DNA from: Candidatus Methylomirabilota bacterium
GTDB taxonomy: Bacteria > Methylomirabilota > Methylomirabilia > Rokubacteriales > CSP1-6
DNA: 57,753 bases
NCBI GenBank assembly: GCA_046723845.1
Contig: JBKOVG010000028.1
Span: forward strand, 1-57,753
Reading direction: 5' to 3'
The position numbers and the translations under genes were made by a program. The notes beneath the pieces were generated by a model that was given only the letters and a program-made list of their open reading frames with translations, was not told where the DNA came from and searched no databases. Of the stretch, positions 3,243 through 35,836 are shown piece after piece; within the stretch, counting starts at the first letter, position 1, and each line of letters starts with the position of its first letter.

Positions 3243-3261
3243 CTATGGTCTTCTCCTCTCT

Positions 3262-5101: not shown

Positions 5102-5111
5102 GGGTGCCGAG

Positions 5112-5390: not shown

Positions 5391-5402
5391 AGCGCCGCCA
5401 GG

Positions 5403-7409: not shown

Positions 7410-7511
7410 GTCCACACTGTACGAGCGGTTTCACAGAACGCCAAGAAATGCAGTTGGGTGCAGTGCATCACATACCTCCCGCACATGCGGTGAGCATAGG
7501 AGGAAGGTGGA

Positions 7512-7688: not shown

Positions 7689-7771
7689 GCCGTCGCAGTC
7701 AGAGAACACACACCTCGTGCGCCCCGGGGGCTGGCCAGCCAGCCTCCGGGGTTACGGAGACACAACGAGCA

Positions 7772-8239: not shown

Positions 8240-8255
8240 GAAGGTAGGGACAAAC

Positions 8256-11037: not shown

Positions 11038-11050
11038 GCCGGAGCGGCGA

Positions 11051-12268: not shown

Positions 12269-13641
<1,373 letters not shown>

Positions 13642-13645
<4 letters not shown>

Positions 13646-14583: not shown

Positions 14584-14587
14584 TGCC

Positions 14588-16170: not shown

Positions 16171-16192
16171 CGACCGGTATGGGAGGCGCGCG

Positions 16193-18201: not shown

Positions 18202-18228
18202 CGGGACTGCTTCACGTCCCGTCCTCCC

Positions 18229-20145
18229 ATGAGCATGCCGGAACACCTCGCCGAGTCAGGGGACGGATGGCTTCGCCGGCTTCGGCGATACTCGCCCTTC
18301 AACCGGAGCCACGGGCTCAGACGTCTTCCGGACGATGTGATTGGCGCCGCCGTAGTCTGCTCCGCGCTTTTCCATGCCGTCATGGTCCTCGGGCTCGTCC
18401 GGGCCACTCAGGCCCCGCGATGGTCCCCAGGGGCCGAGATTTCCCTCGTCAGCCTGGCCGACCTCGTCGCCTCCGTGCCTGAGCGGACTCGAGCCGCCGA
18501 GGCCCAGACCGATCGGCCTGGCGGACACGCGGCGCCAGCGCCCGTACCACCACCGGCGATTCGAACCGCTTTATCGTCCTCGCCGTCGCCTTTGCCGGCG
18601 CCCCGGTCACCAGAGGTCGCGAAACCCTTGGTCGAGAGTAGCCTTGGCACGTCGACCCCGAAGGCGACCATCGTGGGGACGCCAGCCGAGTCCCACGAGA
18701 GGCTGCCAGCCATGGCCGCACCGCCCGCTCCAGCCGAGCTCGGACCCGTGGCCATGGTCACACCTCCCATCGTGGACACTCCTCTCGACCCCGGTTGGCC
18801 CGAGCCGCCTCCACTGCCCGCCCCCGAACCTGCGAAGGCGACCCCATCGCCTTCGGTCCCCGTCGCGGCCCAGGTCGCCGCGGCCGCCCGCGAGCTGACG
18901 CCTGCATTGATGGTCCCGAGCGCGACGCGCGTGGAAACCCCTCCGACGCCCGCCCGACCACGGATCGAACCTGCACCCGCGCCGGCAGCCGTCGGGGCAC
19001 CCCCTGGGCCAGCCGGTTCGCCGGTCACCGTCCAGGAGCCGCTCAAACCCCCTCTTGCGACCGGACAGCCGGTCGCGGAGGCCGCAGACCGCGCTCGACC
19101 TGCATCACCGCTCGGTATGAGGTCCGGTCCGCTCCTGGTGCGCCTCGATGGGCCGAGGCAGCGCGTGACCGATCAGCCCAACCAGACGATCTCGGGACGG
19201 CTGCTGGGCGGCACTGCCGAGCGGGTCGTGCTCTACGTCAACGGGCAGGCCATCACGATGAGCCCGACCCTGCGCACCTTCGAGATCTCGGTGCCGCTGC
19301 AGCCCGGCTCCAACAGCGTTCGGGCCGTCGCCGTAGACTCCGCGGGGCTCGAAGCCGATGACCTGATCGCGGTCCAGTACGTGAGGCCGCCGTTGACAAA
19401 CCGCATCGTCCTGGCGACCCCGGATGATGGACTCACGCTCGGGCCCGAGGATCCGCCGGTCGTCGTGGTCGAGGGCGAGGTGGAAGACAAGACCATCGAT
19501 ACCGTGTGGGTCGTGGCGAACGATCGGCGTGTCCCGGTGACGACCCGGGACGGGCACTTCCGCCATGTGCTCGTGGTCTCCGAGCCGGTGCTGCGCCTGT
19601 GGGCCGAAGCTTCCGTGAATGGAAGCCCGCTTCAACGGAGCAAGACCGTGACGGTCCGCAGCAACGGCAGCGCCACCCCGACCGGGATCCTCGTCGTGCA
19701 GTGGCCGCGCGGAATGGATCCCGTCGACGTGGAAGTCAGCGCCACCTGGCGGTCCCACGCGGACCGCCTCGACATCCCCGCGCAGACGGTGAGCTTGCCG
19801 GCGCTCGCCGGGGCCGGCAAAAGCACGCTCTCGGATGTCTTCTACCTGAGGGGCGTGAAGCCGGGCGTCTACACGTTGGCCATGCGCGGGCGCGGCACGC
19901 TTCCGCCAAGCGACGTTCGCTCAACATTCTACTTTCCGGGGAAGGCCGGATTCAGCGAGTGTCCGCTCCGTCCCGCCCGCCTCGGCAGCGGACGGACGGT
20001 GCTCGCCAAGGTTCTGCTGCCCTACGGGGTCCTTTGGAGCCAGGACGACTGGTTCAGCGGCGTGAGCGAGAGCGTGGACACGGTGACGAAGTTCCGGGTA
20101 CCGGAAGGCATCAGCTGGGTCGAGCGACGGGCCGATCTGCCATGA
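18229..20145 (+). CDS. Membrane-anchored protein with long Pro/Ala linker and C-terminal Ig-like domains
   Basis: TonB-like anchor (SALFHA), Pro-rich spacer, repeated beta-sandwich pattern (VNG...F...VPLQPGSNSVRAVA). Confidence 0.72.
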   Translation: MSMPEHLAESGDGWLRRLRRYSPFNRSHGLRRLPDDVIGAAVVCSALFHAVMVLGLVRATQAPRWSPGAEISLVSLADLVASVPERTRAAEAQTDRPGGHAAPAPVPPPAIRTALSSSPSPLPAPRSPEVAKPLVESSLGTSTPKATIVGTPAESHERLPAMAAPPAPAELGPVAMVTPPIVDTPLDPGWPEPPPLPAPEPAKATPSPSVPVAAQVAAAARELTPALMVPSATRVETPPTPARPRIEPAPAPAAVGAPPGPAGSPVTVQEPLKPPLATGQPVAEAADRARPASPLGMRSGPLLVRLDGPRQRVTDQPNQTISGRLLGGTAERVVLYVNGQAITMSPTLRTFEISVPLQPGSNSVRAVAVDSAGLEADDLIAVQYVRPPLTNRIVLATPDDGLTLGPEDPPVVVVEGEVEDKTIDTVWVVANDRRVPVTTRDGHFRHVLVVSEPVLRLWAEASVNGSPLQRSKTVTVRSNGSATPTGILVVQWPRGMDPVDVEVSATWRSHADRLDIPAQTVSLPALAGAGKSTLSDVFYLRGVKPGVYTLAMRGRGTLPPSDVRSTFYFPGKAGFSECPLRPARLGSGRTVLAKVLLPYGVLWSQDDWFSGVSESVDTVTKFRVPEGISWVERRADLP

Positions 20146-20876
20146 GCCGACGGGGCGCGGTCCTCATCCCACTTCTGGGGCTGATGCTGCTGGGTGCCGG
20201 CGAGGCCACGGTGGCGGACCTCAACGAGGCAGGGAAGGCCGCCTATGCCCGGGGAGATTTCGCCACCGCCGAGCGCCTGTTCGGCCAGGCTCTCGTCAAG
20301 GCGCCGGATGAGCCGCTGCTCTACTACCATCGGGGTATCGCCCTGATGCGCCTGTCCCGCTGGCAAGAGGCCTCGACCGCGTTTCAGGCCGCGCTCCGGC
20401 TGAACCCCTCTCCCGAAGTCGCGCAGCCCGCGCGGGAGGGCCTCCGCTCGATCGCCCCGTTACTGCGCGAGGCCGCAGCCCAGAGGGCCACCCCGGACGA
20501 CACGGCCGTCACGCTCCGCCGGATCGGAGGCAACTGGTTCGCGCAGGTGCGCCTCAACAACGCTCGGACTGCGCAGTTCCTCGTGGATACCGGCGCCACG
20601 ACCTGTGTGATCTCACCCAATCTCGCCGGCGCCCTCGACATCCGCCCGGAGCGCCACTCCAGTCCGGTTCCGTTGCAGACGATCTCCGGCCTCACCAGTG
20701 GTCACGTGGTCACGATTCCGTCGCTGCGAGTGGGCGCGGTCGAAGCGCAGGACGTGGTCGCGGTGGTTCACGACGTGGGCCCATCCATGGACGGCATCCT
20801 CGGCAACACCTTCCTGTCACGCTTCACGGTGACCCTCGACCCGGAGCGCGGGCTCCTCCGGCTGAGCGCCCGATGA
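20142..20876 (+). CDS. Exported TPR + retropepsin-like (clan AA) aspartic protease
   Basis: Signal peptide, TPR repeats, FLVDTGA catalytic motif and DGILGN. Start ATG 20142 (ATGA overlap). Confidence 0.88.
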   Translation: MSRRGAVLIPLLGLMLLGAGEATVADLNEAGKAAYARGDFATAERLFGQALVKAPDEPLLYYHRGIALMRLSRWQEASTAFQAALRLNPSPEVAQPAREGLRSIAPLLREAAAQRATPDDTAVTLRRIGGNWFAQVRLNNARTAQFLVDTGATTCVISPNLAGALDIRPERHSSPVPLQTISGLTSGHVVTIPSLRVGAVEAQDVVAVVHDVGPSMDGILGNTFLSRFTVTLDPERGLLRLSAR

Positions 20877-22507
20877 GGCCGCGCGGGTCCCAGGCCGTGA
20901 ATTTGCTTCAGATTCAGGAGGGCTCAGCCGGCGGAGAGGCCCTTTCGCAGACCTGGCAGCCCGCGCGAGCGCGCCGAATACCGTGGCAATCGCTGACGAT
21001 GGTCGCCGTCGTGATGAGCGTCGCTCTCTACCGGTTTTCGTTCACGGTCGCCGACCCCGATCTGTGGGGCCACGTCAAGTTCGGCGAGACGATATGGAAT
21101 GCAGGCCGCGTGGCAATCCCGGATCCGTTCTCGTACCTGACGGCGGGACGGCTCTGGCTCGACCACGAGTGGCTCTCGGAGGTCATCTTCTACCTGGTGT
21201 TTGCCGCGGCGGGACCGGCCGGCCTGATCGTGATGAAAGCCCTCCTCGGCCTGGGTTTGATGGGCGTCCTCTACCGACATCTCGGCCGTCAGGGTCTCAG
21301 CGCCCTCCGGGCCGGTTTTCTCGTTCTCGCCGCGGTTCATTTCTTCCTCATGTCCCTTGTCACGGTTCGGACGCTCATCTTCTCGTATCCGCTTTTCCTC
21401 CTCGTCCTAGCGCTGCTTCACCGAATGGCCCACGGCAGGCCGCGATGGATGTGGATCGTTCCTCCCGTCTTCGCCCTCTGGGCGAACCTGCACCCCGCGT
21501 TCCTCGCCGGGCTCGGGATCATCGGAATATGGGCAGCCGTCGAGACGTGGGCGCGGCTGATCGACCGACGATCGGTTCCGATCGGCCGCCCGACGATGGG
21601 CGAGATCATTCTCTTGCCGATCGCGTGCGGATTGGCAACCCTGCTGAACCCGTTCGGTCTCACGCTGTGGAGTCTCCTCCGGGAAACGGCCTTCGGATCT
21701 CGGCCCGACATCACCGAATGGCAGCCCCTCGCGCTCATGACCCCCTTCGGGCTCGCCTACGCGGCTCTCGTGGCCCTCGCACTCTGGGGTCTCATCTATA
21801 GCCGACGACCGCGCCGCGCCTCCCTCATGGCCGTCCTCGTCGTCGCGGCTCTGCTCCCGTTGGTCGCTATCCGCCACACCCCGCTGGCGGTTCTCGCCAT
21901 CACAGTCCTCGCCGGCGAGCACATGGGCGACGCGTGGGATCGTTGGCTGCAGAGTCGATCCGCCTCCCGATCCGGAAGCCGGCTCTCCGAGGCAGGGCTG
22001 CCGGCAGCGGCTCTCGTCGCGGGACTCTTTCTCGGCGTCTCGGCGCTGCCGCACTTCACCTGCATCCGCATCGCGCCGGCCATCGGCGGAAGCTACCCCG
22101 CGCGCGCGGTGGGGCTCATCAAGGAGAGCGGGGTTGCCGGCAACCTGGCGATCGACTTCGACTGGGGTGAGTATGCCCTCTATCATCTGAGCCCAGCCGT
22201 GAAGGTATCCATGGACGGCCGTCGCGAGACAGCCTACGGTCAGCCGACCTATCTCGAGAGCCTGGCCTTCCGCTTCGGCCAGGGACAGTGGAACGCCGTC
22301 CTCGAGAATCCCGAGACGCACATGGCGCTGGTCAAGACCGGCTTTGCTCCGTACAACTTGATGAAGCTCGAGCCCGGCTGGCGATTGATCTACCGGGATT
22401 CGCTCGCGGCCCTGTTTGCCCGCGAGGGCCTGCCGGTCGTGGACGCCCTCGAGCGGACCGCCGCGCCAAGTCTTCCGCCCGACGGCGCCGGGCTGTGTTT
22501 CCCCTGA
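20873..22507 (+). CDS. Polytopic membrane protein, putative GT-C glycosyltransferase
   Basis: DPDLWGH..G, DPFSY, HEW, WANLH, NPFG, EW and DGR motifs; many TM helices; paralog of 42375..43955. Confidence 0.7.
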   Translation: MRPRGSQAVNLLQIQEGSAGGEALSQTWQPARARRIPWQSLTMVAVVMSVALYRFSFTVADPDLWGHVKFGETIWNAGRVAIPDPFSYLTAGRLWLDHEWLSEVIFYLVFAAAGPAGLIVMKALLGLGLMGVLYRHLGRQGLSALRAGFLVLAAVHFFLMSLVTVRTLIFSYPLFLLVLALLHRMAHGRPRWMWIVPPVFALWANLHPAFLAGLGIIGIWAAVETWARLIDRRSVPIGRPTMGEIILLPIACGLATLLNPFGLTLWSLLRETAFGSRPDITEWQPLALMTPFGLAYAALVALALWGLIYSRRPRRASLMAVLVVAALLPLVAIRHTPLAVLAITVLAGEHMGDAWDRWLQSRSASRSGSRLSEAGLPAAALVAGLFLGVSALPHFTCIRIAPAIGGSYPARAVGLIKESGVAGNLAIDFDWGEYALYHLSPAVKVSMDGRRETAYGQPTYLESLAFRFGQGQWNAVLENPETHMALVKTGFAPYNLMKLEPGWRLIYRDSLAALFAREGLPVVDALERTAAPSLPPDGAGLCFP

Positions 22508-22527
22508 CCGGCTCACGACGGAGTGGA

Positions 22528-23019
22528 TCAGCCACCGGTCGCGAGCAGACCGGCCCCGATAAGTGCGATCAGCGAGCCGATCGGCAGAGTCTTGCGCCGT
22601 TCAGCGCGTCCGGTGATCAGGAGGTACAGCAACACGACCCCGCCTCCGAGTTGCGAGAGCGCGAAGGCGATCAGGGCCGGCTTCCAGCCGACCGCGCTGC
22701 CCACCAAGGCTACCAGCTTGATATCCCCGCCGCCGATTCCTCCCCGGGTCACTAGCGCGAGCAGAAGCAGCAGTCCACCCCCCACCAGAATGCCCAGGCC
22801 CGCCTCTACGAGCCCGGCCTTGCCCCCGGAGACGGCAGCGAGAACCAGCGCATACATCATGGAAGGCAAAGTTACGACGTCGGGAATCGTCTTGGTCGTG
22901 AGATCAACGACGACGACCACGGCGAGCGCACCGAGCAGCGGCAGGAGCGCCAGCCACCGAGGCGTGAGACCGAGTCGCTGAAGAGCTACCAGGGCGAACA
23001 CCAGGCCCAGGGCCACCAC
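22528..23019 (-). CDS. cpaA: Prepilin peptidase (A24, TadV/CpaA type)
   Basis: D...IPD and GGGDIKL aspartate motifs, no Zn/methylase N-domain. Start is uncertain (GTG 23019; the track ORF extends to 23178). Confidence 0.88.
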   Translation of the reverse strand: MVALGLVFALVALQRLGLTPRWLALLPLLGALAVVVVVDLTTKTIPDVVTLPSMMYALVLAAVSGGKAGLVEAGLGILVGGGLLLLLALVTRGGIGGGDIKLVALVGSAVGWKPALIAFALSQLGGGVVLLYLLITGRAERRKTLPIGSLIALIGAGLLATGG

Positions 23020-23063
23020 CGCAGCCAGCGGCCCCGGACGGGTGAGCTGCGCCAGCGGGTTCC

Positions 23064-23807
23064 CTATCTGGTCGGGGATGGTGGTAGAGGCGAAGGTGAC
23101 CCGGGAGCCAGCCGAGGCCCGTGACGATACTCGCGGAGCTGCTCCTCGAACTGGGCGTCCCCGCGCCGGCCGATCCACTTCACGTAGAAGCGAACCTCCG
23201 GAGCATACCAGTATTCGTCGACATCTCGCCGATCGGTCTCGCGAACCACCTTCACGGCGTTGAACCGGCCAGCGGGAACTTCGACGACCTCGGTGGTCAC
23301 GACGGAGAACCGGTCGGTGACTTCGCTCCTGCCCTTTCCGTCTTCATACGTGGCGTGATGCGTCCACCGCTGCCCCTCCTCCAGCGGCCAGACGAACCAG
23401 GGCTCCGGTGGACTCATGCGCGACTCGACCTTCTGCTCGCGCATCGTACCCGCCCATTGAATGTCCCGGGTGTAGAAGTGCTCCAGATCCCCGACCCGGA
23501 CCAGATAGAACCTCACCTTGTTGATCTCCCGGATCTCGACCACTTCCACGGTCTTCGTGCCAGCCTCCGAACCGCTCGTCCATCCGTAGACCCAGCGGTC
23601 CCCAGGTCGCCACTCCGGGGGCGCGCTGACGACCATCGGCGGCGGCACCGCGGCCGCCGGGGCGGTGGGGGTGGTCGCCGTCGTCGTGCAGCCCCCGATA
23701 GCGATCCCGAGGGTAGCTAGACCCGCGGCACAGGCCGTACGTGGTGCCGAGAGGAGGTCGCGCACCATGGACGCTATAGTCTCATGGTCGCTTCTCGCGC
23801 TCGCCAT
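23064..23807 (-). CDS. Lipoprotein with Thr/Pro linker and beta-rich domain
   Basis: LGIAIGG-C lipobox-like, TTTATTPTAP linker, EVVEVPAGRFNAVKV...WYAPEV motif. Confidence 0.75.
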   Translation of the reverse strand: MASARSDHETIASMVRDLLSAPRTACAAGLATLGIAIGGCTTTATTPTAPAAAVPPPMVVSAPPEWRPGDRWVYGWTSGSEAGTKTVEVVEIREINKVRFYLVRVGDLEHFYTRDIQWAGTMREQKVESRMSPPEPWFVWPLEEGQRWTHHATYEDGKGRSEVTDRFSVVTTEVVEVPAGRFNAVKVVRETDRRDVDEYWYAPEVRFYVKWIGRRGDAQFEEQLREYRHGPRLAPGSPSPLPPSPTR

Positions 23808-23918
23808 ACTTTAGGACGTCGACTGACCGAGAAAATCCGGCGCTCGACGGCGGCGTTGTGGTAGAAGGGTCGCCGAGGGCAGAGGAGAGCACGACAGCCA
23901 CGTCGATCGGAGGTCGCC

Positions 23919-24085
23919 ATGAAGGCTCTGGGAATCGTCGCCATCTTCGCCGGGTCCTGGTCATCATCCTGTCGCTCACTGGTGTGATCGGGCAAGGCGC
24001 GGGTCGGGCGGTGATCATCGCGAAGATCATTCTCCTTGCCGCCGGCTACTTCCTCTACAAGCGGAGCCTGCGCCCGCCCGCGTAG
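23919..24085 (+). pseudogene. Small two-helix membrane protein with a 1-nt frameshift
   Basis: GGAGG RBS, then MKALGIVAIFAG. It continues VLVIILSLTG...AGYFLYKRSLRPPA if one G is added to the G run near 23953. Confidence 0.5.
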
Positions 24086-24205
24086 CGGCATCGTGACGGT
24101 TCGCGGTCATCACCGACTGCGGGATCGACTCCCACTCCGTTCTCGAACGCCATGATCGCGAGTCCCGGAAACGCACGCACGGGGACGCGCAGAGGAATGC
24201 GAGCC

Positions 24206-24523
24206 ATGTCTGAACACGGGTCCGGGACCCCGCGGTCGCCGCGCGCCACGAAACCGACTCCGAGGACGCGGCGCGCCGATCTGCCAGTCGTGGAGGTATT
24301 TTTCATCCTCGGGGCGATCCTGGTCCTGGTGGGCTTTCTCTACTCTCTTGCCCGGTCGTGGCCATCGTTCGATCCCCTGGCCCTGGCGACGCTGGTAGGC
24401 ATCGGCCTACTTCTGGTGGTCGTCTGCGAGCGCATGCGTCTGGTGCTTCATGAGCTCCGGGTCCTGAATTCGCTCATGCGGACCCTGATCGCCGACACGC
24501 AGCAGGAGCCCCCGGGGACGTAG
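24206..24523 (+). CDS. Small two-TM membrane protein
   Basis: Two hydrophobic helices and host-like codon use; start uncertain (24152 to 24206). Confidence 0.65.
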
Positions 24524-24603
24524 CCGGCAACATCCGAGACCGCGGAGATCGCGGTCAGTGTAAGGCGCTCGAGCAGTCGCCGGAGGGGTCTCTGCCAGCC
24601 TGG

Positions 24604-26307
24604 ATGGTCGAGCTTGTCTTGCTTGCGCTCGCCTTGGCGCTCGCGCTCATCCGACCCGGAATCGGCTCGAGATGGCTCGAGAAGGTGGAGCGCGGGCTGA
24701 ACCGGCTTGCGCGGCGTCGTGCGCTCGCCGTGGTGACGGTGGGCGCCACCGCTCTGATCGCCCGGCTCGCACTGTTGCCCCTCGTGCCGATCCCGGAGCC
24801 TGACGTCCACGACGAGTTCAGCCATCTGCTCGCCGCCGACACATTCGCCAGCGGCCGGCTTACGAACCCCACGCCGCCGATGTGGACGCATTTCGAGAGC
24901 TTCCACATCATGTTGCGACCGACCTACGCGTCCATGTATCCACCCGCGCAAGCTCTCGTGCTTGCCGGCGGCATCTTGCTCGGACACCCCTGGTTCGGAG
25001 TCTGGCTTTCCATCGGCGCGCTGTGCGCGGCGGTTTGCTGGATGCTACAGGGCTGGTTTCCGCCGGGCTGGGCACTCTACGGCGGGATGCTCGCCATCCT
25101 GCGTTTCGGGCTGTCGGGGTACTGGGTGAACAGCTACATGGGCGGCGCGGTGGCCGGCGTCGGGGGCGCGCTGATCCTGGGAGCGCTGCCCCGCCTCAAG
25201 AAGGAGGCCCGGATCCGGGACGCGCTGCTCATGGGTGCGGGCCTGGTCCTCCTCGCCAACAGCCGGGCATACGAGGGACTCGTCCTCAGCCTGCCGGTCG
25301 GTGTGGCGCTCGTCGCATGGTTGCTCACGAGTCGTCGCCCCGCCCTCAAGGATCGAGCGCTCCGGGTGGCCTTGCCCATCGTTCTCGTTCTGGCCCTGGC
25401 CGGGACCGCGATGGGATACTACTTCTGGCGCGTGACCGGTCATCCCTTCCGCATGCCGTACGAGGTGGCCCGTGCGACGTATGCCACCGCACCGATATTT
25501 CTCTGGCAGTCTTCACGACCGGAGCCGACCTATCGTCATGCAGTGATGCGGGAGTTCTACAAGCGCTACGAGCAGGATTTCTACGAAGCCGAGATCGGGA
25601 GCCTCCGGGAATTGATCATCACGAAGCTGGCCTTCACGACGGCCTTTGTCGCCTTCTATTTCGGCCCCGCGCTGCTCCTGGTCCTCTTGATGTTCCCGCA
25701 GACATTCAGCGATCGGCGAGTGCGGTTCCTGGTCATCGCCGGAGCGGTCGTGATCGCCGGACTCGCGGTGGAGGTCTTCTTCATTCCCCACTACGCCGCT
25801 CCGCTAACCAGCCTCGGTCTCGCGCTGGTGGTCCAAGCCCTCCGTCACCTGGGGCGATGGCGATGGCGGGCGCAGCCAGCCGGCGCGCTGCTCGTCCGCC
25901 TCCTCCCGATCGTGAGCGCAGCAGCGCTGGCACTCCGTTTGGCCGCGCCGGGGCTGGGATGGCCTCTCGCGGAGACGAACCTCTGGTGGGCACGGCTCAC
26001 GCCGAGCCCTCGCCCGCTCGAGCGCGCGCACCTGCTCGCCGATCTCCAGCGACTCGACGGCGACCACCTCGTCATCGTTCGCTATGGCCCGGCGCACGAC
26101 CCCGGCCGCCAACTCGAATGGGTGTACAACGCGGCGGACATCCCGGGAGCCAAGGTGATCTGGGCGCGTGACATGGGCGAGCACGAGAACGCCAAACTGA
26201 TCGACCACTATCGTCATCGGCGCGTCTGGCTGGTCGAGCCCGACCTGCCGCCGGTTCGCCTGGAGCCCTACCGGCTCCCGCGTGGGGCTCAACGCCCCGC
26301 CGGTTGA
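24604..26307 (+). CDS. Polytopic membrane protein, putative GT-C glycosyltransferase
   Basis: [13 protein letters not shown] acidic DE motif in the first external loop, YPP, many TM helices, soluble C-terminal domain. Confidence 0.72.
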
Positions 26308-26416
26308 AGGCGACGCGGTCGGCTCGGCCGATCGTCGTCGTACCTTGAAGATTCGGGGGCGTTCCGGTTTAGACTGAGCCATTGACGGCGAAGACGCGCC
26401 CCGGGCTCCGGGCCTG

Positions 26417-27817
26417 ATGCGTCTATACCGAGAGTCCAACGATCTCAGCGAAGAGGACACCATGTCGCCAGGACACGACGATCCGCGCTGGCCAACCCGT
26501 CGCGACGTACGAGACAGTGAGGTCCCGGCGGGCCCGTCTCCTTCCTCCGATCTACTTGAAGGGCCACCGGCCGATCCGTTTCTTCCTCCCCTACTGACGA
26601 CGGCCGAAGACTCTGGCCTGGACCTCGGTTTCCTGGCCGACCTCGCGCTCAAGACGGCCTATGCGGACACGAACTGCACCACCCAGAGGGCGGCCCAGCA
26701 GCTCGCCCTGCCGGTCGGCATCGTCGACGTTCTGCTTCAGCATCTCTACCGCGAGCACTTCATCGAGATCCGGGAGACACTCTCGCAGCAGAATCGCCGG
26801 TATGCGATGCTCGATCGCGGTTGGGAGCGCGTGCGCCGCCTCCTGGACCTGAACGCCTACATCGGCGCCGCGCCGGTCTCCCTCAGCGCGTACAGCGCCA
26901 TGGTGAGGCGCCAGGAAGAGCGCCGACCCCCGGTCGATGACGGGGCCATCCGGTCCGCTCTTGCCGACCTCGTCCTGCCCGAGTCCACGCTTCAGGTGCT
27001 CGGGGTGGTGGCCAACTCCCGACGGAGCCTGTTCATCACGGGCGCGCCAGGCAACGGCAAGACCTCGATTGCCCGAGCCCTCCACGCGGCTCTTCGGGGC
27101 GACATCTGGATACCGCGGGCCATCGAGGTGGACGGCCACGTCATCAACGTATTCGATTCGCACAATCATGCGCCGGTCGACCCACCGCCCACCGCTCCTC
27201 ACGATCAGCGCTGGATCAAGATTCGGCGGCCGCTCGTGGTCGTGGGAGGAGAGCTCACCATCGAGAGCATGGACCTGACCTACGACCAGACCGTGAAGTT
27301 CTACGAGGCTCCGTTTCAGATCAAGTCCAATGGCGGCAGCCTGCTGATCGATGATTTCGGACGCCAGAGAATACAGCCACGGGATCTCTTCAATCGCTGG
27401 ATCATACCCCTGGAGAATCGCGTCGACTACCTGACGCTGCATACCGGCAAGAAGATCCAGGTGCCGTTCGAGCAGCAGCTGATCTTCGCGAGCAACCTGA
27501 GCTCCTCTGGCTTCGGCGAGGAGGCCTTCCTCCGGAGGCTCGGCTACCGTCTCGCCGTAGACCCCCCCAGCCCCCAGATCTACGCGCGGATATTCCAGAA
27601 ATACGTCGAGGCACAGCGGCTCCGTTGCGATCCTCGACTCGTCGAGGCGCTCCTCGCCCGCTACCAGCAGGAGGAGCGAGAGATGAGGTCCTGCCAGCCG
27701 CGCGATCTCGTCGACCGCTGCCGCGACATCTGCCGCTACGAGGACCGTCCTTTTGCCTTGACCAGGGAGCTCCTCGACCGCGCGTGGCTGTACTACTTCG
27801 GCGCGCAGGCCTCCTGA
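26417..27817 (+). CDS. AAA+ ATPase with N-terminal winged-helix-like segment
   Basis: Walker A GAPGNGKT, Walker B LLIDDFGRQ, FASNL sensor, AFLRR. Confidence 0.85.
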   Translation: MRLYRESNDLSEEDTMSPGHDDPRWPTRRDVRDSEVPAGPSPSSDLLEGPPADPFLPPLLTTAEDSGLDLGFLADLALKTAYADTNCTTQRAAQQLALPVGIVDVLLQHLYREHFIEIRETLSQQNRRYAMLDRGWERVRRLLDLNAYIGAAPVSLSAYSAMVRRQEERRPPVDDGAIRSALADLVLPESTLQVLGVVANSRRSLFITGAPGNGKTSIARALHAALRGDIWIPRAIEVDGHVINVFDSHNHAPVDPPPTAPHDQRWIKIRRPLVVVGGELTIESMDLTYDQTVKFYEAPFQIKSNGGSLLIDDFGRQRIQPRDLFNRWIIPLENRVDYLTLHTGKKIQVPFEQQLIFASNLSSSGFGEEAFLRRLGYRLAVDPPSPQIYARIFQKYVEAQRLRCDPRLVEALLARYQQEEREMRSCQPRDLVDRCRDICRYEDRPFALTRELLDRAWLYYFGAQAS

Positions 27818-27821
27818 GCGC

Positions 27822-29084
27822 TCAGGCGCTCTCGGCCGGCACTGCCCGCCCCGGAGCGGTCATCGCCGCCCAGATCTGGTACACACCGAGTCCAACCAGC
27901 ACCAGTGTATACAGCTGCAGGGTCCTGTTGACCCCGATAGGTACCGGCGGGATCCACGGCACGACGTAAAGCAGAACGAAGAGGATTCGGACCGCCCGCG
28001 GCATCGCGTCCCACCTCGAGTAGAGCGCACCGGCCGCGAGCGCCATCCCGAGCACGACGATCGTCGTATCGTACGGGGCCACGTAGACATTCAGGACCAT
28101 CGTCCACGTGAGGGTGGCGGCCCACGTGAGGCCCGACTCCACCGAGCCCTCGCGTCGTCGGGCTCGCCACAGCTTGACCAGCCACGGCAGCACGCCCGCC
28201 GTCACCACCGCCATGACGCCCAACGCCCAGTGCCCACGGCCCCCGACGGCTAAGCGAACGAACGAGTTGAGGTCGACATAGTCCGAGAGCAGGAAGGAGT
28301 TGCGCGGGCCCGTCGCCATCGTTCCGAAGCGGAGCAGCATCGCCACGTAGTCGGCGCATCCCTGCCACCCCACCACCAGCACTGACACCGCGCCGAGCAC
28401 CGCGGTGCCTGCGCCGAACCCGACCAGGATGCGGCGGCGGCATCCGACGACGAGCATCGGGAGCAGGAGCCCGAGCAGCGTCGGCTTCGAGAGGCACAGG
28501 GACAACGCGATCCCGGCCCAGTAGTCTTGCCGCCGGCGCTGACACCACAGTGCGGCGGCCATCCAGAAGAACGTCAGGGCGGCCACCTGCCCGCGAGCGA
28601 TGCTGTCCACCGCCACCGGCCGGAACGACAGCATCAGGAGCAACGCGAGCGGCAGCTGGCCCCATGTCAGCGAGTCGCTCGCCCGCCACACGAGGGTGAA
28701 TCCCAGGCCGAACAGAACTAGGGAGAACAGCTGCCATGCCACGAGCGCCGACTCGAATGGCAGCAGCGCAAAAGGTCGAAACGCGATCGCCTCGAAGGGC
28801 GCGTGAGCGTAGAGCTGTTTCACCTCCGCGGGCAACGCCGGGAACAGCGAGTGGTACGTGCCATTGAAGGACTCCGGGGCGTAGAGAATTTCGGGTGAGT
28901 GGTTGAGGGCATACCCGACCGTGTAGAACGCCATGAACTCCCGCATCAGAGGTCTTCCCGATCGCAGCGCGTCGGTCTGGCTCTGAGCAAGTACCCAAAG
29001 GATTGCGATCGAGAGCGTCGCGGCTGCGACCTGCCACGGTCTCACTCGGAACGTCTCAGGGCCCGCCCGGACCACTGGGCTCAC
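27822..29084 (-). CDS. GT87/DUF2029-like membrane glycosyltransferase
   Basis: EFMAFY, YAHAPF..F.PFALLP, RGQ, KP, YD motifs; polytopic. Confidence 0.78.
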   Translation of the reverse strand: MSPVVRAGPETFRVRPWQVAAATLSIAILWVLAQSQTDALRSGRPLMREFMAFYTVGYALNHSPEILYAPESFNGTYHSLFPALPAEVKQLYAHAPFEAIAFRPFALLPFESALVAWQLFSLVLFGLGFTLVWRASDSLTWGQLPLALLLMLSFRPVAVDSIARGQVAALTFFWMAAALWCQRRRQDYWAGIALSLCLSKPTLLGLLLPMLVVGCRRRILVGFGAGTAVLGAVSVLVVGWQGCADYVAMLLRFGTMATGPRNSFLLSDYVDLNSFVRLAVGGRGHWALGVMAVVTAGVLPWLVKLWRARRREGSVESGLTWAATLTWTMVLNVYVAPYDTTIVVLGMALAAGALYSRWDAMPRAVRILFVLLYVVPWIPPVPIGVNRTLQLYTLVLVGLGVYQIWAAMTAPGRAVPAESA

Positions 29085-30615
29085 TGGTCCTTTCGAAGAT
29101 CACGACCGATACCGTACCGAAGCGTCCGATCGGACGAGACGAAAACCCCATGGGCCCGAGCGTATGCTCGAGCAATTCCCGAAACGGAACAGACCGCCCG
29201 TGAAAGAAGTCGTGTGTGTTGACCACGAGAACGAAGGACCCTCGTTCCCTGGCCAGCATCATCGAGACTTGCCGGAGGTAGCCGGTGCCCTCGTCGCCCA
29301 GGTCGTACGGCAGTGGAATCGCCGGGCCAGGCACGCGATAGAACGCGACCGGCGCGACGAGGTAGCCTGCCTCCTCCGGGTCCAGGGGCCATCGGAGACG
29401 AGCCGATTCGATGAATGTCGCGCCAACGAGCACCGGCACCGGCCTCCCGTTGGTCGCGTCGGCCGCGGCATGCAGTGCCATCCGCCAATCTTCCATCCGC
29501 TCGACACCGACCCCCATCCCGAGCACGGACAGGCCGGCCACAATCGTCACCAGCACCAGCCGGATACGGGAGCTTCGGACGCCCCTGATCGTCCACGCCA
29601 TGATCAGAGCGATGGCGGGTGCCGCGCACAGAAAGTACCTGGACACGAGCACCGTCGGGCTCATCCATCGTGCCGCGGCCACGACCATGATGACCGGCAT
29701 CGCGGCCCAGCACGACAGGAGTACCAGTGGCGCCGGCACACGCAGGTAGTGGGCTGGCAGGCGCCGCTCGAGCAGGGCGCTGCCGGCGACGATCGCCAGC
29801 GGCGCGACAGCGAATCGTATGTCTCCCCAGCCGCGGAATGGTGCGCCGCTCACGGCGGACATCCACATCCGTCGCTGCCACACCGGGGGTAATGCCACGG
29901 CCAGGGGCACCAGCAGCAGTCCGATGGCACCGGCCGTGACCACGGCGCTTGACCAGCCGATGGGCGCAGTGCCGCGCCGCGCGCGGTCGACCGCGTGGAC
30001 GACATGGACGACGAACATGACGGCGAACAGTGGCTGAATGTAGACGGTCAGCACGCTCAGCATCACATACGCGGCCCAGTCCACCGGATGCCGGCGGCCG
30101 AGCCAGCGATCCAGGGCCACGACCGCGGCGATGAGCACCAGGAGCCCGATCGCGTAGCCGCGCGCCGTGATGGCCGCGTCGGCCACGAGCCAGTAGCTCG
30201 CGAAGCACACGGCCGCGAGCGCCCCCATCTCCCGGTCCACGAATCGGAGACCCAGTCGGTAGACCAGCGCCGTAGATGCCGCGGCCGCGAGAATCGACGG
30301 AATCCGAAGCATCCATTCCGTCGCCCCGCCCGCCGCGACCGCCGCCCACGCGACCACGAAATAGGCGGGGGACTGCGCGTTGAAGTGCAGCGACCGTCTG
30401 AACAGCGCCGGCAAGCCGTCCTTCACCACCCAGTAGGTGATCGTCTCGTCGAGCCAGAGGCTCGACCAAAGGGGCAAGATCCAGAGCACCACCACCGACA
30501 CCGTCAACACACCGGCGAGATACACCATCCGCTTCGGGTCCGACGGGAACCCAGATTGGTGCATGCGTTCCGCGCCATCATCGCCACCTACGCTGCTAGC
30601 GGTCAGGCCTGACAT
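29056..30615 (-). CDS. GT39/GT83 (PMT/ArnT-like) membrane glycosyltransferase
   Basis: SLWLDE, SPAYF, LRIPS, ARGYA, RY motifs; polytopic. Confidence 0.82.
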   Translation of the reverse strand: MSGLTASSVGGDDGAERMHQSGFPSDPKRMVYLAGVLTVSVVVLWILPLWSSLWLDETITYWVVKDGLPALFRRSLHFNAQSPAYFVVAWAAVAAGGATEWMLRIPSILAAAASTALVYRLGLRFVDREMGALAAVCFASYWLVADAAITARGYAIGLLVLIAAVVALDRWLGRRHPVDWAAYVMLSVLTVYIQPLFAVMFVVHVVHAVDRARRGTAPIGWSSAVVTAGAIGLLLVPLAVALPPVWQRRMWMSAVSGAPFRGWGDIRFAVAPLAIVAGSALLERRLPAHYLRVPAPLVLLSCWAAMPVIMVVAAARWMSPTVLVSRYFLCAAPAIALIMAWTIRGVRSSRIRLVLVTIVAGLSVLGMGVGVERMEDWRMALHAAADATNGRPVPVLVGATFIESARLRWPLDPEEAGYLVAPVAFYRVPGPAIPLPYDLGDEGTGYLRQVSMMLARERGSFVLVVNTHDFFHGRSVPFRELLEHTLGPMGFSSRPIGRFGTVSVVIFERTSEPSGPGGP

Positions 30616-30980
30616 CTCGATCGAAACTCCAGGGTGGCGCCGACGCCTTCACTCATCCGGTCATCGTCTCCGGGGTGCGCGGGGTAGGTGCGACGACACT
30701 CCGGGGATCCGGTCGCTTCTCCGATCCAGACCGGATCGGCGCACCCCTACGACTGACCCGCCGAGGGCGGAGACGACTGGGCCCGCGCGACGATTCGGTA
30801 GCCCTCCGTGAGACCGCGCAGACGTGCGAGCTCGGGAAGCTCGGCACAAAGGTGTCCCGCTTCGTCAATCGCTTGAGCCAGAACCGCACCTCCGACTCTG
30901 CGTCACGCTGGCGCTCGTCCAGGACGTGAAGGCGAAACATCCCCACGAAGGCCGCCAGGGCGGTCGAGGATTCCGCAACG

Positions 30981-31757
30981 CTAGGACCTGGAGAACGGCC
31001 CGCTCCGCTTTGTTCGTCCTGAATCTATATGGTCGACGCGAATGTGGTCAGCCGACGAGCCAATCAATTCGAGCCGAAGCACTGACGATGAGGCGCTAGG
31101 TCTGCGCCCGAGCACTTGCGATACGACGCCGGTGAGGGCCAGGACGGCGAAAGGTTTATGGAGAAACGGCCACCCGCACTCCTTGATCCCGGCCACCTTA
31201 TAGCCTGACATGAGTACGACCTTCATCTCTGGCTGAGATTCTAAAAGCCGACGGGCCAATTCGCGCCCGCTCATGACCGGCATGACCACATCAACGAGCA
31301 GGAGATCCGGAATGCACGATCGGTCATGCAGCATTCGAATAGCTTCCAACGGATCGGTAGTGCTGAGTACGGTATAGCCGTCGGGAACAAGGATATCTTG
31401 GGCGAGCGGGCCGATCTCGGGTTCGTCATCCACGACGAGGATCGTGCCCTTGGACGACAGCTCGGGCGTTGGGTCTGGCGGAGCCGATACCTCTCCGTTG
31501 GCATCCGCTATCCACCGGTCGATCTCCCGGCAAGCCAGGGTCAGCGCGGCCCGTTCGATCTCGAAGACCAACGCCGCTCCTTCGAACGTGATCCGGCGGC
31601 CCGCAAACAGCCCGTCGATATGGGCGACAAGCACGAATCGGCGGCACCATGCCGCGTCGGGCTCGCCGCTCAGGGGAACGCGCCACACCGGCAAGAGATC
31701 GGTCCCGCCCACACGCTCTGGCTGGCCAGCGCGCCGCACAACTCCAGTCAACCACAC
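30981..31757 (-). CDS. Response regulator receiver protein with N-terminal extension
   Basis: ILVVDDE...DLLLVDVVMPVMSG...MSGY...FLHKPF. Confidence 0.8.
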   Translation of the reverse strand: MWLTGVVRRAGQPERVGGTDLLPVWRVPLSGEPDAAWCRRFVLVAHIDGLFAGRRITFEGAALVFEIERAALTLACREIDRWIADANGEVSAPPDPTPELSSKGTILVVDDEPEIGPLAQDILVPDGYTVLSTTDPLEAIRMLHDRSCIPDLLLVDVVMPVMSGRELARRLLESQPEMKVVLMSGYKVAGIKECGWPFLHKPFAVLALTGVVSQVLGRRPSASSSVLRLELIGSSADHIRVDHIDSGRTKRSGPFSRS

Positions 31758-32273
31758 GCATCACGAAACGGTGAAAAAGAGCGTGCTATGGCCCCTGTCA
31801 GCGACTCGACCGGGATCACCCCGGCCAAGCGTCCTGGGTCCGGGAGGGCGCACGGGAGGCGGTTGCGGCCTACGCCTCCCGTGGCTCTCTGAGAGTTGTC
31901 TCATGGCCCTCTCTCTTATCAGGGCCGAGCCTCGTGAGACGACCCGGCCAGTACGGGTTCAAACAGTTGATTCGATTGCGGTCTTGGTCTCACGGGAAAT
32001 GTCGCGATCCGGCCGCCTCACTTACTCCGCCAATCCAACAGCCGGGAGAGATTGCTCCATCGCGCCTGTGCTAGCTCACCGGTCAAGAGCCTGGATTCAT
32101 TGATCTTGCTCCTTCGCCCCGGTTGGCCGTTTTGCGCTGATGCAGGTGTAAGGTGCTTCGCAGGCCCTTCGCGTGCCGCTCGTGGATGCCGGCATAGGGG
32201 AACGCGGCGGTCAGCGTCGGATAGAACACCACGCCGCTGCCCTGGGCATCTAGGGAGCAGAGCATCTTCCTGA

Positions 32274-34181
32274 TCATGCTGGGGACTCCGGAGTCAGGAG
32301 CCACTCCCACCGGACCCCCTTCTTGACGCTGTCGCAGACGCGCTCGCGGGCCCGTCGGAGGGTGATCTTCGTGAACCCCGCCGCCGCGGCGTCCTTCATG
32401 ACGTCTTCGGAGTGGCGGGGGCCGGCGACCAGGTATTCGCGGAGCCAGGCCTCGCATTGGCGTCGGCTGCCGCGGTCCTCCGGGGATTCTTGGGGCGGGG
32501 TGAAGATGTCCGTGAGGTTGACCGTGACGGGTTGGGCTTCCCACGTGATCCACGGGACGGCGGCGTCGTCAGCGGCCACGATACGGTAGGCGAGGGTCGG
32601 GACGCGACCGTAGAGGTTGCCCTTGAGCTTGACCAGAAAGCGCCGCGGGTTCGCGCTGTCATCGTCGGGATCCTGCGCGACACCGAGGACGACGCGTGGC
32701 ACGGCCGTGAAGGCCACGGAGCCGCCGGCGTAGTAGTGCAGGTTCGTGGTGACCTTGGGCGGATGCATGAGGCCGATGCCGGCGGCGCCCGTGCGGGCCA
32801 GGAGCGTTGCGAAGGGAGTGAGGACGCGGCGGACGTCGGCGTCGTTGTGTGATTTCACGTTCCCGAGATAGCCGATGATGCCGTCGACAACCACGAGGGC
32901 GGGATGCTCCGTCTCGATGGCATGCTCGAGGGCGTCAATGTCCCGCTCCAGCGTCAAGAGCGAGAGCGCCCCATCGGCGTCACGAACCATCTGCACGAAG
33001 CTGATCTTGGTGAGGTCGGCGCCCGCCTGGCTCAGGCGGGGCACGATGGTGCTGGCGAGCGTGTCCTCGTTCGTGAGCATCAGCGAGCGCCGAGACGCCC
33101 CACGGCCGGCGACCGCGGCCGCGGGGGGCAGCGGCGAGCCCACGGACAACCGGGCCATGTAGTCGCATGCGACGAGCGTCTTGCCTTGGTCGGGGAGCCC
33201 GACACCCATCGTGAGCGCGCCGACGGCCAGCCGGCCCGGGTCCACCCAGGTGATCGGTTTGGGCGTCACGCTGCTCGCGGGCACGAGGATGGCCGCCCGC
33301 CCGCCGGGCCGCAGGGGCACGCCAGGCTTTGCCCGCTCGCCGGGCGGCTTCCGCGCATCCTTCGCGGCCAGGTCGCGGACGATCTCCCGCACTTCGCCCT
33401 CGGGGAAGGGGGGAACGCAACGGGCCGCGTACCCCAGGAGGATAGCCTCGACCTCCGTGGTCACAATATGGAGGCCGAGATAATGGCCCGCGATTTCCAG
33501 CGCCACCGCGCGGCGCCGCCCCTCGGGAGCTCCGCGGAGCCGCTCGGCCCACGCATCGGGCGTGGCCCGCGGCCCAGTTCCATTGCTCAAGCTCGACGAC
33601 GTGGCCAGCGCGAGGTCGACCAGCCAGCTCGGCATCGGGGCCAGATCGGTCTCGAAGAGCGGGCGATCGGGGTCGTCGTGATAGACGCCTCCGCTGACAT
33701 GCCCGGAGGGCGGGACCAGGACGTAGCCTCCCTGTGCCCGAATGTCGAGCCCGGCCCCGACGACGCCGCTGCTACACCGGAGGTGGGGCACCGGCTGGAA
33801 GTAGTGGTGAGCACCGCCACCGCCCGTCCACACTTGGGGCGTCACCGGTAGCGCACCGTGGTGGCGCTCGAGCGCCGCGAGGGCACCGTTGCCTCCGTGG
33901 CGCGGGTCCACATCCAGCACGGCGCACCAGGTCGTGGGCGTCGCAATATGGGCGTGTGGATGGCGCCGCCACCACGCTGTGATCCGCGCGATCTCCGTCG
34001 CCGCGTCCTTGAGCCCGTTCGGCGCGACGTCGCCCAGAGGGTGCTTGCCTGAGTCTTTGCAGTTGGGGCCGCGGCCACACGCACAGTGACGATCCGCGAT
34101 CCACCAGCACGGGAAGATAGGCACGTCCCGCTCGGCATAGGCGAGCGCCGCGTCCAGCATCGTCCTCGCAATGGTCTTCAT
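32274..34181 (-). CDS. Bifunctional DNA primase/polymerase fused to AAA_25-type helicase
   Basis: AALAYA, C.C...C...GKHP, VLDVDPRHGG, TGGGGAHHYF, DIRAQGGYVLVPPS (Prim-Pol); P-loop GLPDQGKT, LVVVD, H..K, GS.AF. Confidence 0.9.
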   Translation of the reverse strand: MKTIARTMLDAALAYAERDVPIFPCWWIADRHCACGRGPNCKDSGKHPLGDVAPNGLKDAATEIARITAWWRRHPHAHIATPTTWCAVLDVDPRHGGNGALAALERHHGALPVTPQVWTGGGGAHHYFQPVPHLRCSSGVVGAGLDIRAQGGYVLVPPSGHVSGGVYHDDPDRPLFETDLAPMPSWLVDLALATSSSLSNGTGPRATPDAWAERLRGAPEGRRRAVALEIAGHYLGLHIVTTEVEAILLGYAARCVPPFPEGEVREIVRDLAAKDARKPPGERAKPGVPLRPGGRAAILVPASSVTPKPITWVDPGRLAVGALTMGVGLPDQGKTLVACDYMARLSVGSPLPPAAAVAGRGASRRSLMLTNEDTLASTIVPRLSQAGADLTKISFVQMVRDADGALSLLTLERDIDALEHAIETEHPALVVVDGIIGYLGNVKSHNDADVRRVLTPFATLLARTGAAGIGLMHPPKVTTNLHYYAGGSVAFTAVPRVVLGVAQDPDDDSANPRRFLVKLKGNLYGRVPTLAYRIVAADDAAVPWITWEAQPVTVNLTDIFTPPQESPEDRGSRRQCEAWLREYLVAGPRHSEDVMKDAAAAGFTKITLRRARERVCDSVKKGVRWEWLLTPESPA

Positions 34182-34624
34182 GCGTCGGGCGTGTCAAATC
34201 GCATGCACAGCTCCAACGCCGCCACTTCGACGACCGCCGCGGCGGACAGAATCTCCCAACCCAGGAAGTCTCCCTCGCCTAACCCCGTCGCGAACGCTCG
34301 CGCGATGGTCGCGGTGCGAAACGCTCGCCGGATGGCGACGGCCGCCCTCGAGCGCAAGCCGTCGGCGGTCATCGCCGTCCCTCACTCGCTGGGGACGCTA
34401 TTCGCTGCTGTCGGCCTCTGGGCACGTCCCACGCGACCGGCACCCAATGCGGCGAGCGGGCGCGGGATCTCGTGCACGAATCGCGCGTGCGAGGGCTCTT
34501 GGCTCGTGTGCCGGTCAGCGGAGTAGCGGGGGGCTCGTTGACCCCCGAGGCGGCGGCGATGCTCAAGGCGAGGACGAAGCCGAAGAGCCCGAGACGTTCA
34601 CCCCGAACAAAACGGAGACGCTAA

Positions 34625-35770
34625 GTGGGTAGCCTCTACCGAAAAAGGCGAAAGCAGCGCGACGGCACCACGGTCGAGGAGCAGATTTGGTGGGTGAAGT
34701 ACTACAAGGATGGCCGGCCGGTCCGCGAATCGACGGGCACGACGAAGGAGAAGGAAGCCGCCAACTTTCTCAAGCGACGAGAGGGCGACGTCGCGAAGGG
34801 CCACCCGATTCTCCCGCGGGCCGAGAAGGTGCGGTGGGAGGAAGCGGCGGCCGATCTGCGCCAGCACTACGAGGCGACGGGCGCTCGGGATCTCGTCGAG
34901 TATGATCGCCGGGTCGCGCACCTCACGCGGGTGTTCGCCGGCCGGCGCATCGCCGGGATCGATCAGGTCGGCGTCAACACCTACACCCTGAAGCGGCGCG
35001 AGGATGGCGTCGTGGACTCCACGATCCGCCGGGAGCTGGGGACGCTGATCACGCTGCTCCGGCGCGCCTATCGGAACGGAAAACTGCTCCAGCTTCCGCT
35101 GTTCGATCGGCCGAAGGGCGGGAAGCCGCGGGAAGGCTTCTTTGAGCGGGCGCCGTTCGATGCCGTGCGGCGCAAGCTCACCAACGAGGATCTCCGGGTC
35201 GCGGTCACGGTCGCCTATACGTTCGGCTGGCGGATGCAGAGCGAAGTGCTCACGCTCGAGCGCCGCCAGCTGGACCTTGACGCGGGAACGCTGCGCCTCG
35301 GTGCCGATACGAAGACCGACGACGGTCGGGTGATCTACCTGACGCCAGAGTGCGCGCGGCTCCTGGCCGCCCAGGTCGCGCGCGTCGAGGCCCTCCAGCG
35401 GCGGCTCGGTCGCGTGATCCCGTTCCTGTTCCCGCACCACGGGAAGGGCCCGCGGGCAGGGACGCGGCGGAAGGACTTTCGGAAGGCGTGGACGACGGCG
35501 TGCACGGCGGCCGGCGTGCCGAGGATGATCCGCCACGACTTCCGGCGGACGGCCGTCCGCAATATGGTCAACGCCGGGGTGCCGGAGCGGGTGGCCATGA
35601 CGATCACCGGCCACAAGACGCGCTACATCTTCGACGCCTACCACATCGTCAGCCCCGGCGACCTGCAGGACGCGGCGCGGAAGCTGGCGGGCACCATTCC
35701 GGGCACCATCGCTGTTTCAGTGATTGACGCCGGGCCGCAAGTACGCGAGACTCCACGCACGGGCGGATAG
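34625..35770 (+). CDS. int: Tyrosine recombinase / phage-type integrase
   Basis: N-terminal arm-binding-like WWVKYY..GRPVRESTGT; catalytic GWR..E, TK, HDFRR, GHK, Y; abuts the tRNA. Confidence 0.95.
   Translation: MGSLYRKRRKQRDGTTVEEQIWWVKYYKDGRPVRESTGTTKEKEAANFLKRREGDVAKGHPILPRAEKVRWEEAAADLRQHYEATGARDLVEYDRRVAHLTRVFAGRRIAGIDQVGVNTYTLKRREDGVVDSTIRRELGTLITLLRRAYRNGKLLQLPLFDRPKGGKPREGFFERAPFDAVRRKLTNEDLRVAVTVAYTFGWRMQSEVLTLERRQLDLDAGTLRLGADTKTDDGRVIYLTPECARLLAAQVARVEALQRRLGRVIPFLFPHHGKGPRAGTRRKDFRKAWTTACTAAGVPRMIRHDFRRTAVRNMVNAGVPERVAMTITGHKTRYIFDAYHIVSPGDLQDAARKLAGTIPGTIAVSVIDAGPQVRETPRTGG
35689..35708 (+). repeat. Putative integrase arm-type binding sites (right, inside int)
   Basis: GGGCACCA-ttcc-GGGCACCA, 19/20 identical to 631-650. 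Confidence 0.7.
35724..35752 (+). promoter_or_regulatory. Element-supplied sigma70-like promoter for tRNA-Val, inside int
   Basis: TTGACG-17 bp-GAGACT ending 8 nt before the tRNA, the same geometry as 449-477. Confidence 0.55.
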
Positions 35771-35836
35771 CTCAGGTGGAAGAGCACGGCCCTTACAAGG
35801 CCGGGGTCGCAGGTTCGAGCCCTGCTCCGCCCACCA
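35761..35836 (+). tRNA. tRNA-Val (anticodon TAC)
   Basis: GGGCGGA/TCCGCCC acceptor stem, CGGCC-CTTACAA-GGCCG anticodon arm, GGTTCGAGCC T-arm, encoded CCA; 76 nt. Confidence 0.98.

Follow-up and report, generated by a model that had tools for sequence, protein, structure and literature searches.

The window analysed here is the whole 57,753-nucleotide (nt) stretch of contig JBKOVG010000028.1 (assembly GCA_046723845.1) from a Candidatus Methylomirabilota bacterium. It carries a tyrosine integrase gene, int, whose open reading frame (ORF) runs into the 5' end of a tRNA-Val(TAC) gene at one end of a putative genomic island. The island is bounded by a left and a right attachment site (attL and attR). 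The features concerned are the following.

34625..35770, forward strand: int, tyrosine integrase gene, stop included (ORF list; 381 amino acids, aa)
35768..35770, forward strand: int stop codon TAG, which is nt 8-10 of the tRNA (sequence, ORF list, ARAGORN)
35761..35836, forward strand: chimeric tRNA-Val(TAC), called functional (ARAGORN; Rfam tRNA, 67.1 bits at 35761-35833)
482..524, forward strand: attL identity block (direct repeat), in which 486-524 correspond to nt 1-39 of the displaced native tRNA-Val, a dead 5' half
35757..35799, forward strand: attR identity block (direct repeat), GCAC followed by tRNA nt 1-39
525..35756, no strand assigned: island body, bounded by attL and attR, with Pfam matches on 24 ORFs

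The gene is the sole long ORF rich in G+C at third codon positions that the ORF list of the window holds at this place. It closes with CGC ACG GGC GGA TAG (window letters 35756-35770). Since the ORF ends at 35770 and the tRNA starts at 35761, 10 nt are common to both. A preliminary description of the locus had read the last 10 nt of int, stop included, as nt 1-10 of the tRNA, and the letters, the ORF list, ARAGORN and Rfam all agree with it. This tRNA is the only one that ARAGORN finds across the whole window and the sole Val(TAC) species among the 37 tRNAs found in the organism's own assembly (450 contigs, 86% complete). As the sole tRNA-Val(TAC) found in the assembly, it must be expressed.

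The assignment of int is based on a PF00589 (Phage_integrase) match over residues 187-339 (E 2.9e-14, 53.7 bits against a cut-off of 27.1). Residues R203, H304, R307, H330 and Y339 are invariant in 32 aligned integrase homologs and, by their position and the R, H-x-x-R, H, Y pattern, are presumably the catalytic ones. The structure model has three domains. Its N-terminus is modelled as three strands and a helix (predicted local distance difference test, pLDDT, about 86-95) and would resemble arm-binding domains; Foldseek aligns the model with full-length lambda Int (1z1b_A, E 7.7e-07, 368 columns). Pfam recognises no family in residues 1-122, even at E <= 10. A promoter scan of 34100-34700 called none for int.

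The attL and attR blocks share 43 nt with one mismatch (515 A versus 35790 C), and the identity ends in the anticodon loop. A search of the organism's own genome found the att block at 482-524 and 35757-35799 only. It is a 5' and not a 3' tRNA fragment that is duplicated at the far end of the island, and the complete tRNA adjoins int. ARAGORN recognises a tRNA in attR and in the computed junction of the empty chromosome (attB), where a complete tRNA-Val results, and none in attL or in the computed junction of the excised element (attP). These results bear out three earlier statements about the locus: that the element is integrated, its att repeats bounding 35.3 kb with the tRNA in attR and none in attL; that a second tRNA 5' half is present at 482-524, followed by a hairpin (542-574) and a T-run (574-583); and that the excised junction would hold only tRNA nt 1-39 and a terminator-like hairpin. 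To judge from the sequence, this is a 35.3-kb genomic island integrated on the 5' side of tRNA-Val(TAC), in reversed polarity, which has replaced the native promoter and 5' half of its target.

Both ends of the island carry further elements around the tRNA sequence.

35689..35708, forward strand: P-arm tandem arm-like repeats, GGGCACCA twice, read as Gly-Thr...Gly-Thr in the int tail (pattern search)
631..650, forward strand: P'-arm tandem arm-like repeats, GGGCACCA twice (pattern search)
449..477, forward strand: promoter-like element TTGACC-17-CACAAT at attL, probably the native promoter of the displaced tRNA 5' half (scan, 9/12 matches)
35724..35752, forward strand: island-borne tRNA promoter-like element TTGACG-17-GAGACT inside the int tail (register of the conserved -35 and -10 blocks)
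542..583, forward strand: P'-arm terminator-like hairpin 542-574 with T-run 574-583 (RNA fold)

The 19-nt sequence GGCACCATTCNGGGCACCA occurs at exactly two sites in the window (0 expected by chance). One copy (35690-35708) lies inside the int tail, 49 nt upstream of the att identity, and the other (632-650) 108 nt downstream of it. The tandem pair is kept, with both copies co-varying, across loci with many different tRNA targets (GGGCACCAT, GGGTACCA, GGGCACAAT, GGGCACGT), and in the window and two homologous loci (L125 and L168) the variant specific to a locus returns some 107-119 nt beyond the tRNA half. The repeats are best described as putative arm-type Int sites.

The scan for the native attL promoter found 1 site where 0.0 were expected. 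The TTGACG-17-GAGACT element may serve as the island's replacement promoter for the tRNA. This role fits because the tRNA is the sole Val(TAC) found, because unoccupied tRNA-Val(TAC) genes in three relatives (L166, L167 and L171) have their own TTGACA promoters at the same distance, and because a relic int tail occurs elsewhere in the same genome. In that relic (contig C268, 29679-30012), all that remains of a related int is a stretch of ~55 codons from its 3' end; it includes arm-like repeats, TTGACG and TAGATT and stands directly in front of tRNA-Val(CAC). It suggests that a promoter-bearing int tail was kept after the rest of int had been lost.

On the P' side, region 542-574 folds at -30.1 kcal/mol into a 12-pair interrupted stem followed by UUUGUUUUUU. 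The GC-rich stem and the subsequent T-run TTTGTTTTTT have the form of an intrinsic terminator. A simple terminator scan did not call the 542-583 hairpin because its loop and stem are interrupted. Equivalent hairpins follow the tRNA 5' halves of five other loci (L010, L125, L143, L041 and L168). Two of these, L168 (in G003, of the same genus) and L010 (on a 2.75-Mb contig), show attP-like junctions inside chromosomes, with arm repeats, promoter, tRNA 5' half and terminator; no integrase is detectable upstream of the junction in L168. They may represent tandem or decayed island arrays.

The C-terminal tail of Int was compared among 16 Val(TAC) sequences whose stop ends at tRNA nt 10 (the +10 arrangement), which comprise 10 distinct tails. 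Pairwise differences in the 78-nt tail are spread over codon positions 1, 2 and 3 as 36, 24 and 40%, compared with 19, 21 and 60% in the preceding 150 nt, which belong to the core. The invariant blocks of the tail coincide with DNA motifs. Residues 361-381 have pLDDT values below 50 and no secondary structure in the model, and are predicted to be disordered. The tail is without protein-type constraint. Its even spread of differences, its predicted disorder and the match of its invariant blocks to motifs thus make it look like translated attachment-site and promoter DNA, and the last ~26 codons of int appear to be the P arm of attP read in frame.

The position of the int stop was followed in 160 homologous loci, 80 from species-representative genomes (queried with the 32-sequence alignment) and 80 from metagenomes; the latter were found with the single int protein as query, which favours near relatives. 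Among the 8000 candidates examined, 3362 proteins match the integrase at E <= 1e-10. A forward-oriented tRNA lies within 300 nt of the int stop in 61 of the 160 loci. The stop is upstream of the tRNA in 41 of these 61, with gaps of 3-179 nt (mode 11-13), at tRNA nt 8-10 in 17, and in the anticodon loop (+39) of tRNA-Arg(CCT) in three. The 17 loci with a stop at nt 8-10 involve Val(TAC) in 15 cases and Arg(CCG) and Arg(TCT) in one each. The tRNA is on the opposite strand, i.e. in classical polarity, in 48 loci (overlap in 7), and in a further 17 the contig ends before the int stop. The remaining 34 have no tRNA within 300 nt of the stop; they include contig-end truncations, such as L008 (by eye also a +10 case), and attP-like junctions with tRNA 5' half, hairpin and T-run (L010, L125, L143 and L041). 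Conservation of the overlap among homologs, which the preliminary description would require, is thus found in the nearest clade, where 15 loci besides the window share it (with the window, 10 distinct tails), and not in the forward loci at large, where the majority stop upstream.

Aligned at tRNA position +1, the forward-oriented loci share a set of blocks in register, whether the target is a tRNA for Arg, Asp, Lys, Met, Pro, SeC, Thr or Val. A tandem repeat of the GGGCAC(A/G) type comes first (about -72 to -50), and TTGAC (about -39), yAAGT (about -24) and a -10-like hexamer (about -15 to -9) follow. Fifteen distinct loci have a stop that ends 10-16 nt upstream; in 8 of them the stop and the 3 nt after it read TAnnnT (for example TAGAAT or TAATAT), and there the in-frame -10 hexamer itself appears to supply the int stop. 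In the clade of the window the hexamers are GAGACT, GAGAAT, GACAAT and GATATT. As the hexamer begins with G there, the frame stays open for another 7 codons, until the conserved U8-A9-G10 in the D-arm region of the tRNA closes it. The int stop in the tRNA is not a random coincidence, because it is the first in-frame stop once the ORF enters this conserved motif and because it recurs in 17 of the 61 forward loci. Retention of the initial G of the -10 hexamer as a means to avoid a stop was considered and rejected, since a T there would give Tyr, not a stop, in the GACAAT and GATATT members. Endings consistent with the +10 arrangement occur among the 120 best protein homologs: [T/I/A]GG in 23 and TRL or TRP in 6.

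To enter a quick IQ-TREE phylogeny, a locus had to give one single tblastn segment, free of stops and 290 aa or longer; 116 distinct rows were used and 45 of 161 were left out, among them L006, L113, L130, L140, L147 and L095. The clade that contains the window has 19 rows and an SH-aLRT support of 99. Fourteen of them are +10 Val(TAC) rows and four have no informative end (three with a contig ending before the stop, and L091 with a stop and no tRNA within 300 nt); L132 has the tRNA on the opposite strand. The stop-inside-tRNA state changes 8 times on the tree, and well-supported branches force at least 5 origins. The overlap thus seems to have been inherited in one clade and to have arisen repeatedly elsewhere as the next available stop. 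Target polarity flips within this closely related integrase group. Close relatives are found in classical polarity at the same tRNA-Val(TAC) or tRNA-Arg(TCT): L132, L095 (metagenome), L098-L101, L108 and L117. The tRNA of L095, which is on the opposite strand, contains the end of the int ORF.

These observations lead us to consider the overlap, with moderate confidence, as a structural by-product of the compact packing of int and its attachment site. The attP of the island would carry a promoter and tRNA nt 1-39. Recombination, presumably within the 43-bp identity, would fuse this island copy to the chromosomal 3' part and so yield a working tRNA, and the native promoter and 5' half would be left at attL, directly before the terminator-like hairpin of the island. 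The int gene would lie so tight against attP that the P arm, read in frame, makes up its last ~26 codons, in the order of two arm-like repeats predicted to bind Int, -35 box, yAAGT block, -10 box and tRNA start. Whichever in-frame stop comes first would then close the ORF: in many relatives the TAR of the -10 hexamer, here the TAG of the tRNA. RNase P cuts at tRNA position +1, and as a side effect a read-through int transcript would lose its stop upon this cut.

Several points weigh against this reading. The TTGACG-17-GAGACT element fits the consensus at 8 of 12 positions only and was not called by the promoter scan. The fold of the hairpin is unremarkable compared with shuffled sequences (z = -1.30, 19 of 200 shuffles as good). 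All 14 clade rows with a readable forward end keep the +10 arrangement at 57-82% identity, none stopping upstream, and this retention across the clade could reflect selection and not descent. The Val(TAC) loci with upstream stops are weak counter-examples: in an island of the same genus (L170, in G008) int ends in TAATTT, a -10-like box 12 nt upstream of the tRNA, and the contig starts inside int; five others, from the two collections, have a truncated or frameshifted int.

The preliminary description had proposed a possible state-dependent switch, for which the overlap would have been selected. In the integrated state the int mRNA would enter the tRNA, RNase P would cut at 35760/35761 and take away the stop, ribosomes would stall and tmRNA would tag Int for degradation, whereas on the excised circle a tRNA half and a terminator would follow the stop and Int would be made. 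The geometry, as given by the sequence and ARAGORN, is exactly the one needed: attR has the tRNA, and the computed attP is without a detectable tRNA and keeps the hairpin. The genome has an RNase P RNA (294.9 bits). The +10 arrangement is kept in the whole near clade and recurs with tRNA-Arg(CCG) and tRNA-Arg(TCT), the [T/I/A]GG and TRL/TRP endings fall in line, and the logic resembles that of the closest published case, the state-dependent int control of ICEKp1 (PMC13023037). However, Int made in the integrated state is also required for excision, the tail shows no constraint at the protein level, and a stop outside the tRNA in 41 of the 61 forward loci excludes a mechanism of the family. The search for a tmRNA gene in the organism's own assembly was negative (none with ARAGORN; best RF00023 match 27.8 bits against a cut-off of 47), a result that does not show its absence as the assembly is 86% complete. 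Because most forward relatives stop outside the tRNA and the first in-frame stop suffices to set the position, a switch of this kind appears quite unlikely, and the claim of a designed, state-dependent mechanism is not sustained. We likewise give little credit to a version in which the Val(TAC) clade and two Arg-tRNA lineages independently moved the stop into the tRNA, RNase P making read-through int a non-stop mRNA.

An effect of the 3' context could also act independently of the overlap. RNase P would leave the 3' end of the int mRNA unprotected, and the message would be less stable when integrated. In most relatives this end would lie 3-54 nt downstream of the stop; here it would precede the stop. 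The excised form would be protected by the hairpin. The hairpin and T-run directly after the tRNA 5' half, in the window and in the attP-like junctions of five other loci, argue for such an effect, as does the complete tRNA within 179 nt of the stop in 61 of 61 forward loci. Yet the P' hairpin would have a simpler role, that of keeping transcripts that start at attL, from the strong native promoter of the tRNA, out of the island, and the scan of 34100-34700 gave no int promoter. We regard both the lower stability in the integrated state and the proposed placing of the 3' end as unlikely. It might further be argued that 482-524 is no attachment site, that nothing has integrated and that the block is a chance or segmental duplicate of a tRNA fragment. 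The left flank (1-524), searched in 40 relatives, gave no syntenic empty site, and in G004, the only relative that shares this flank (85% over 1-412), the similarity is lost before the tRNA half is reached. Two relatives also have sequences similar to the ABC_sub_bind fragment (909-1196) downstream of tRNA-Val(TAC). Against a mere duplicate stand the 43-nt identity that ends exactly in the anticodon loop, int abutting the complete tRNA copy, the identical double arm repeats flanking both copies, the recurrence of the int, half-tRNA and hairpin layout in other loci and the complete tRNA-Val of the computed attB. Such a duplicate is highly improbable. The packing of int against its attachment site is the explanation that we retain.

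The cargo of the island includes a Tad/Flp pilus locus, glycosyltransferases, a STAND-like NTPase, gene fragments and, beside int, a gene of the following type.

32274..34181, reverse strand: PrimPol and AAA_25 primase/helicase-like gene, divergent from int (PF09250, E 5.8e-35; PF13481, E 8.7e-22)

The left end (909-3242) consists of fragments of metabolic genes (the C-terminus of an ABC_sub_bind protein, a C-terminal part of GFO/IDH/MocA and a part of ADH_N). In the relatives L166 and L171, sequences with 80-83% identity to 910-1079 are found downstream of tRNA-Val(TAC). The Tad/Flp locus (8256-18201) encodes RcpC/CpaB, a secretin, a ParA-like ATPase with a receiver domain, a CpaF-type ATPase, two TadB/C-like proteins and a TadE/G-like protein. 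The first gene on the 3' side of the tRNA (36194-36811) encodes a secreted protein with a PEP-CTERM-like C-terminal anchor, PEPGTLLLLGAG...RRHRRK, as judged from the translation only. Further to the right are a long Gly-rich degenerate repeat region with GGN-rich families D2-D6 (50600-52700) and at least five 102-nt tandem repeats with a period of 34 aa, which reach the window end (57105-57753). Three runs, ambiguous 'GENOMIC RNA-Seq' contigs of one soil sample, yielded short fragments when compared with the window, with no joints or usable ends. Several soil contigs match the window only from tRNA nt 29-30 (35789-35790) on and are unlike it before that point. The contig breaks at 35757/35758 and 35789/35790 correspond to tRNA contexts of other organisms, and the same soil may hold other elements or remnants with tRNA-Val 3' halves.

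Parts of this arrangement are familiar from other systems. Like lambda-type integrases, Int has a PF00589 catalytic domain with the R, H-x-x-R, H, Y residues, a modelled N-domain and tandem direct repeats in both arms; here, in contrast, the target is a tRNA 5' half, residues 1-122 match no Pfam arm-domain family and the binding of the repeats is predicted. In lambda, int mRNA of the non-integrated state is destroyed through sib, an RNase III site, so that a 3' RNA element joined to int in one topological state controls the fate of the mRNA. Here RNase P would act in the integrated state and would remove the stop codon. In the Myxococcus phage Mx8, attP lies within the 3' end of the intP coding sequence and integration changes the Int C-terminus. 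The att site likewise overlaps the 3' coding end here, but the stop falls inside the att identity and therefore Int is the same in both states. Reverse-orientation tRNA elements, among them archaeal and viral cases, also have an attP with the tRNA 5' part, lie upstream of the tRNA and must supply a promoter; what differs here is that the int frame takes in the P arm, with its arm-like repeats and putative promoter, as well as tRNA nt 1-10. Such an orientation is rare and already published: integration on the 5' side of tRNA genes is called 'considerably less frequent' than on the 3' side in PMC6563490, which cites Zhao & Williams 2002 (J Bacteriol 184:859) and others. The control of ICEKp1, shown experimentally, acts on the 5' side of int, where a tRNA-Asn promoter is exchanged with a 3'-end promoter (PMC13023037). 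As in that element, integration and excision here change what joins int across the att site, so int expression can differ, whereas the proposed switch would act at the 3' end, via RNase P. In the library searched, no paper describes an integrase controlled by RNase P and a non-stop mRNA, or an integrase gene whose stop falls within a tRNA.

A single 75-nt stretch would at once belong to the integrase frame, hold probable sites for Int binding, replace the promoter of an essential host tRNA and form the 5' end of this tRNA, which shows how tightly a mobile element packs overlapping codes. If the RNase P idea were true, it would provide a new 3'-end counterpart of the known state-dependent integrase controls. 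Transcription across int would be uncoupled from Int synthesis, full-length Int coming from the excised circle only, and read-through from int may help to feed the cell's only tRNA-Val(UAC) past the weak GAGACT promoter. Members of the integrase family are very numerous in soil Methylomirabilota, Nitrospirota, Acidobacteriota and others, and since close relatives use either polarity at tRNA genes, the family is well suited to the study of how target polarity evolves.

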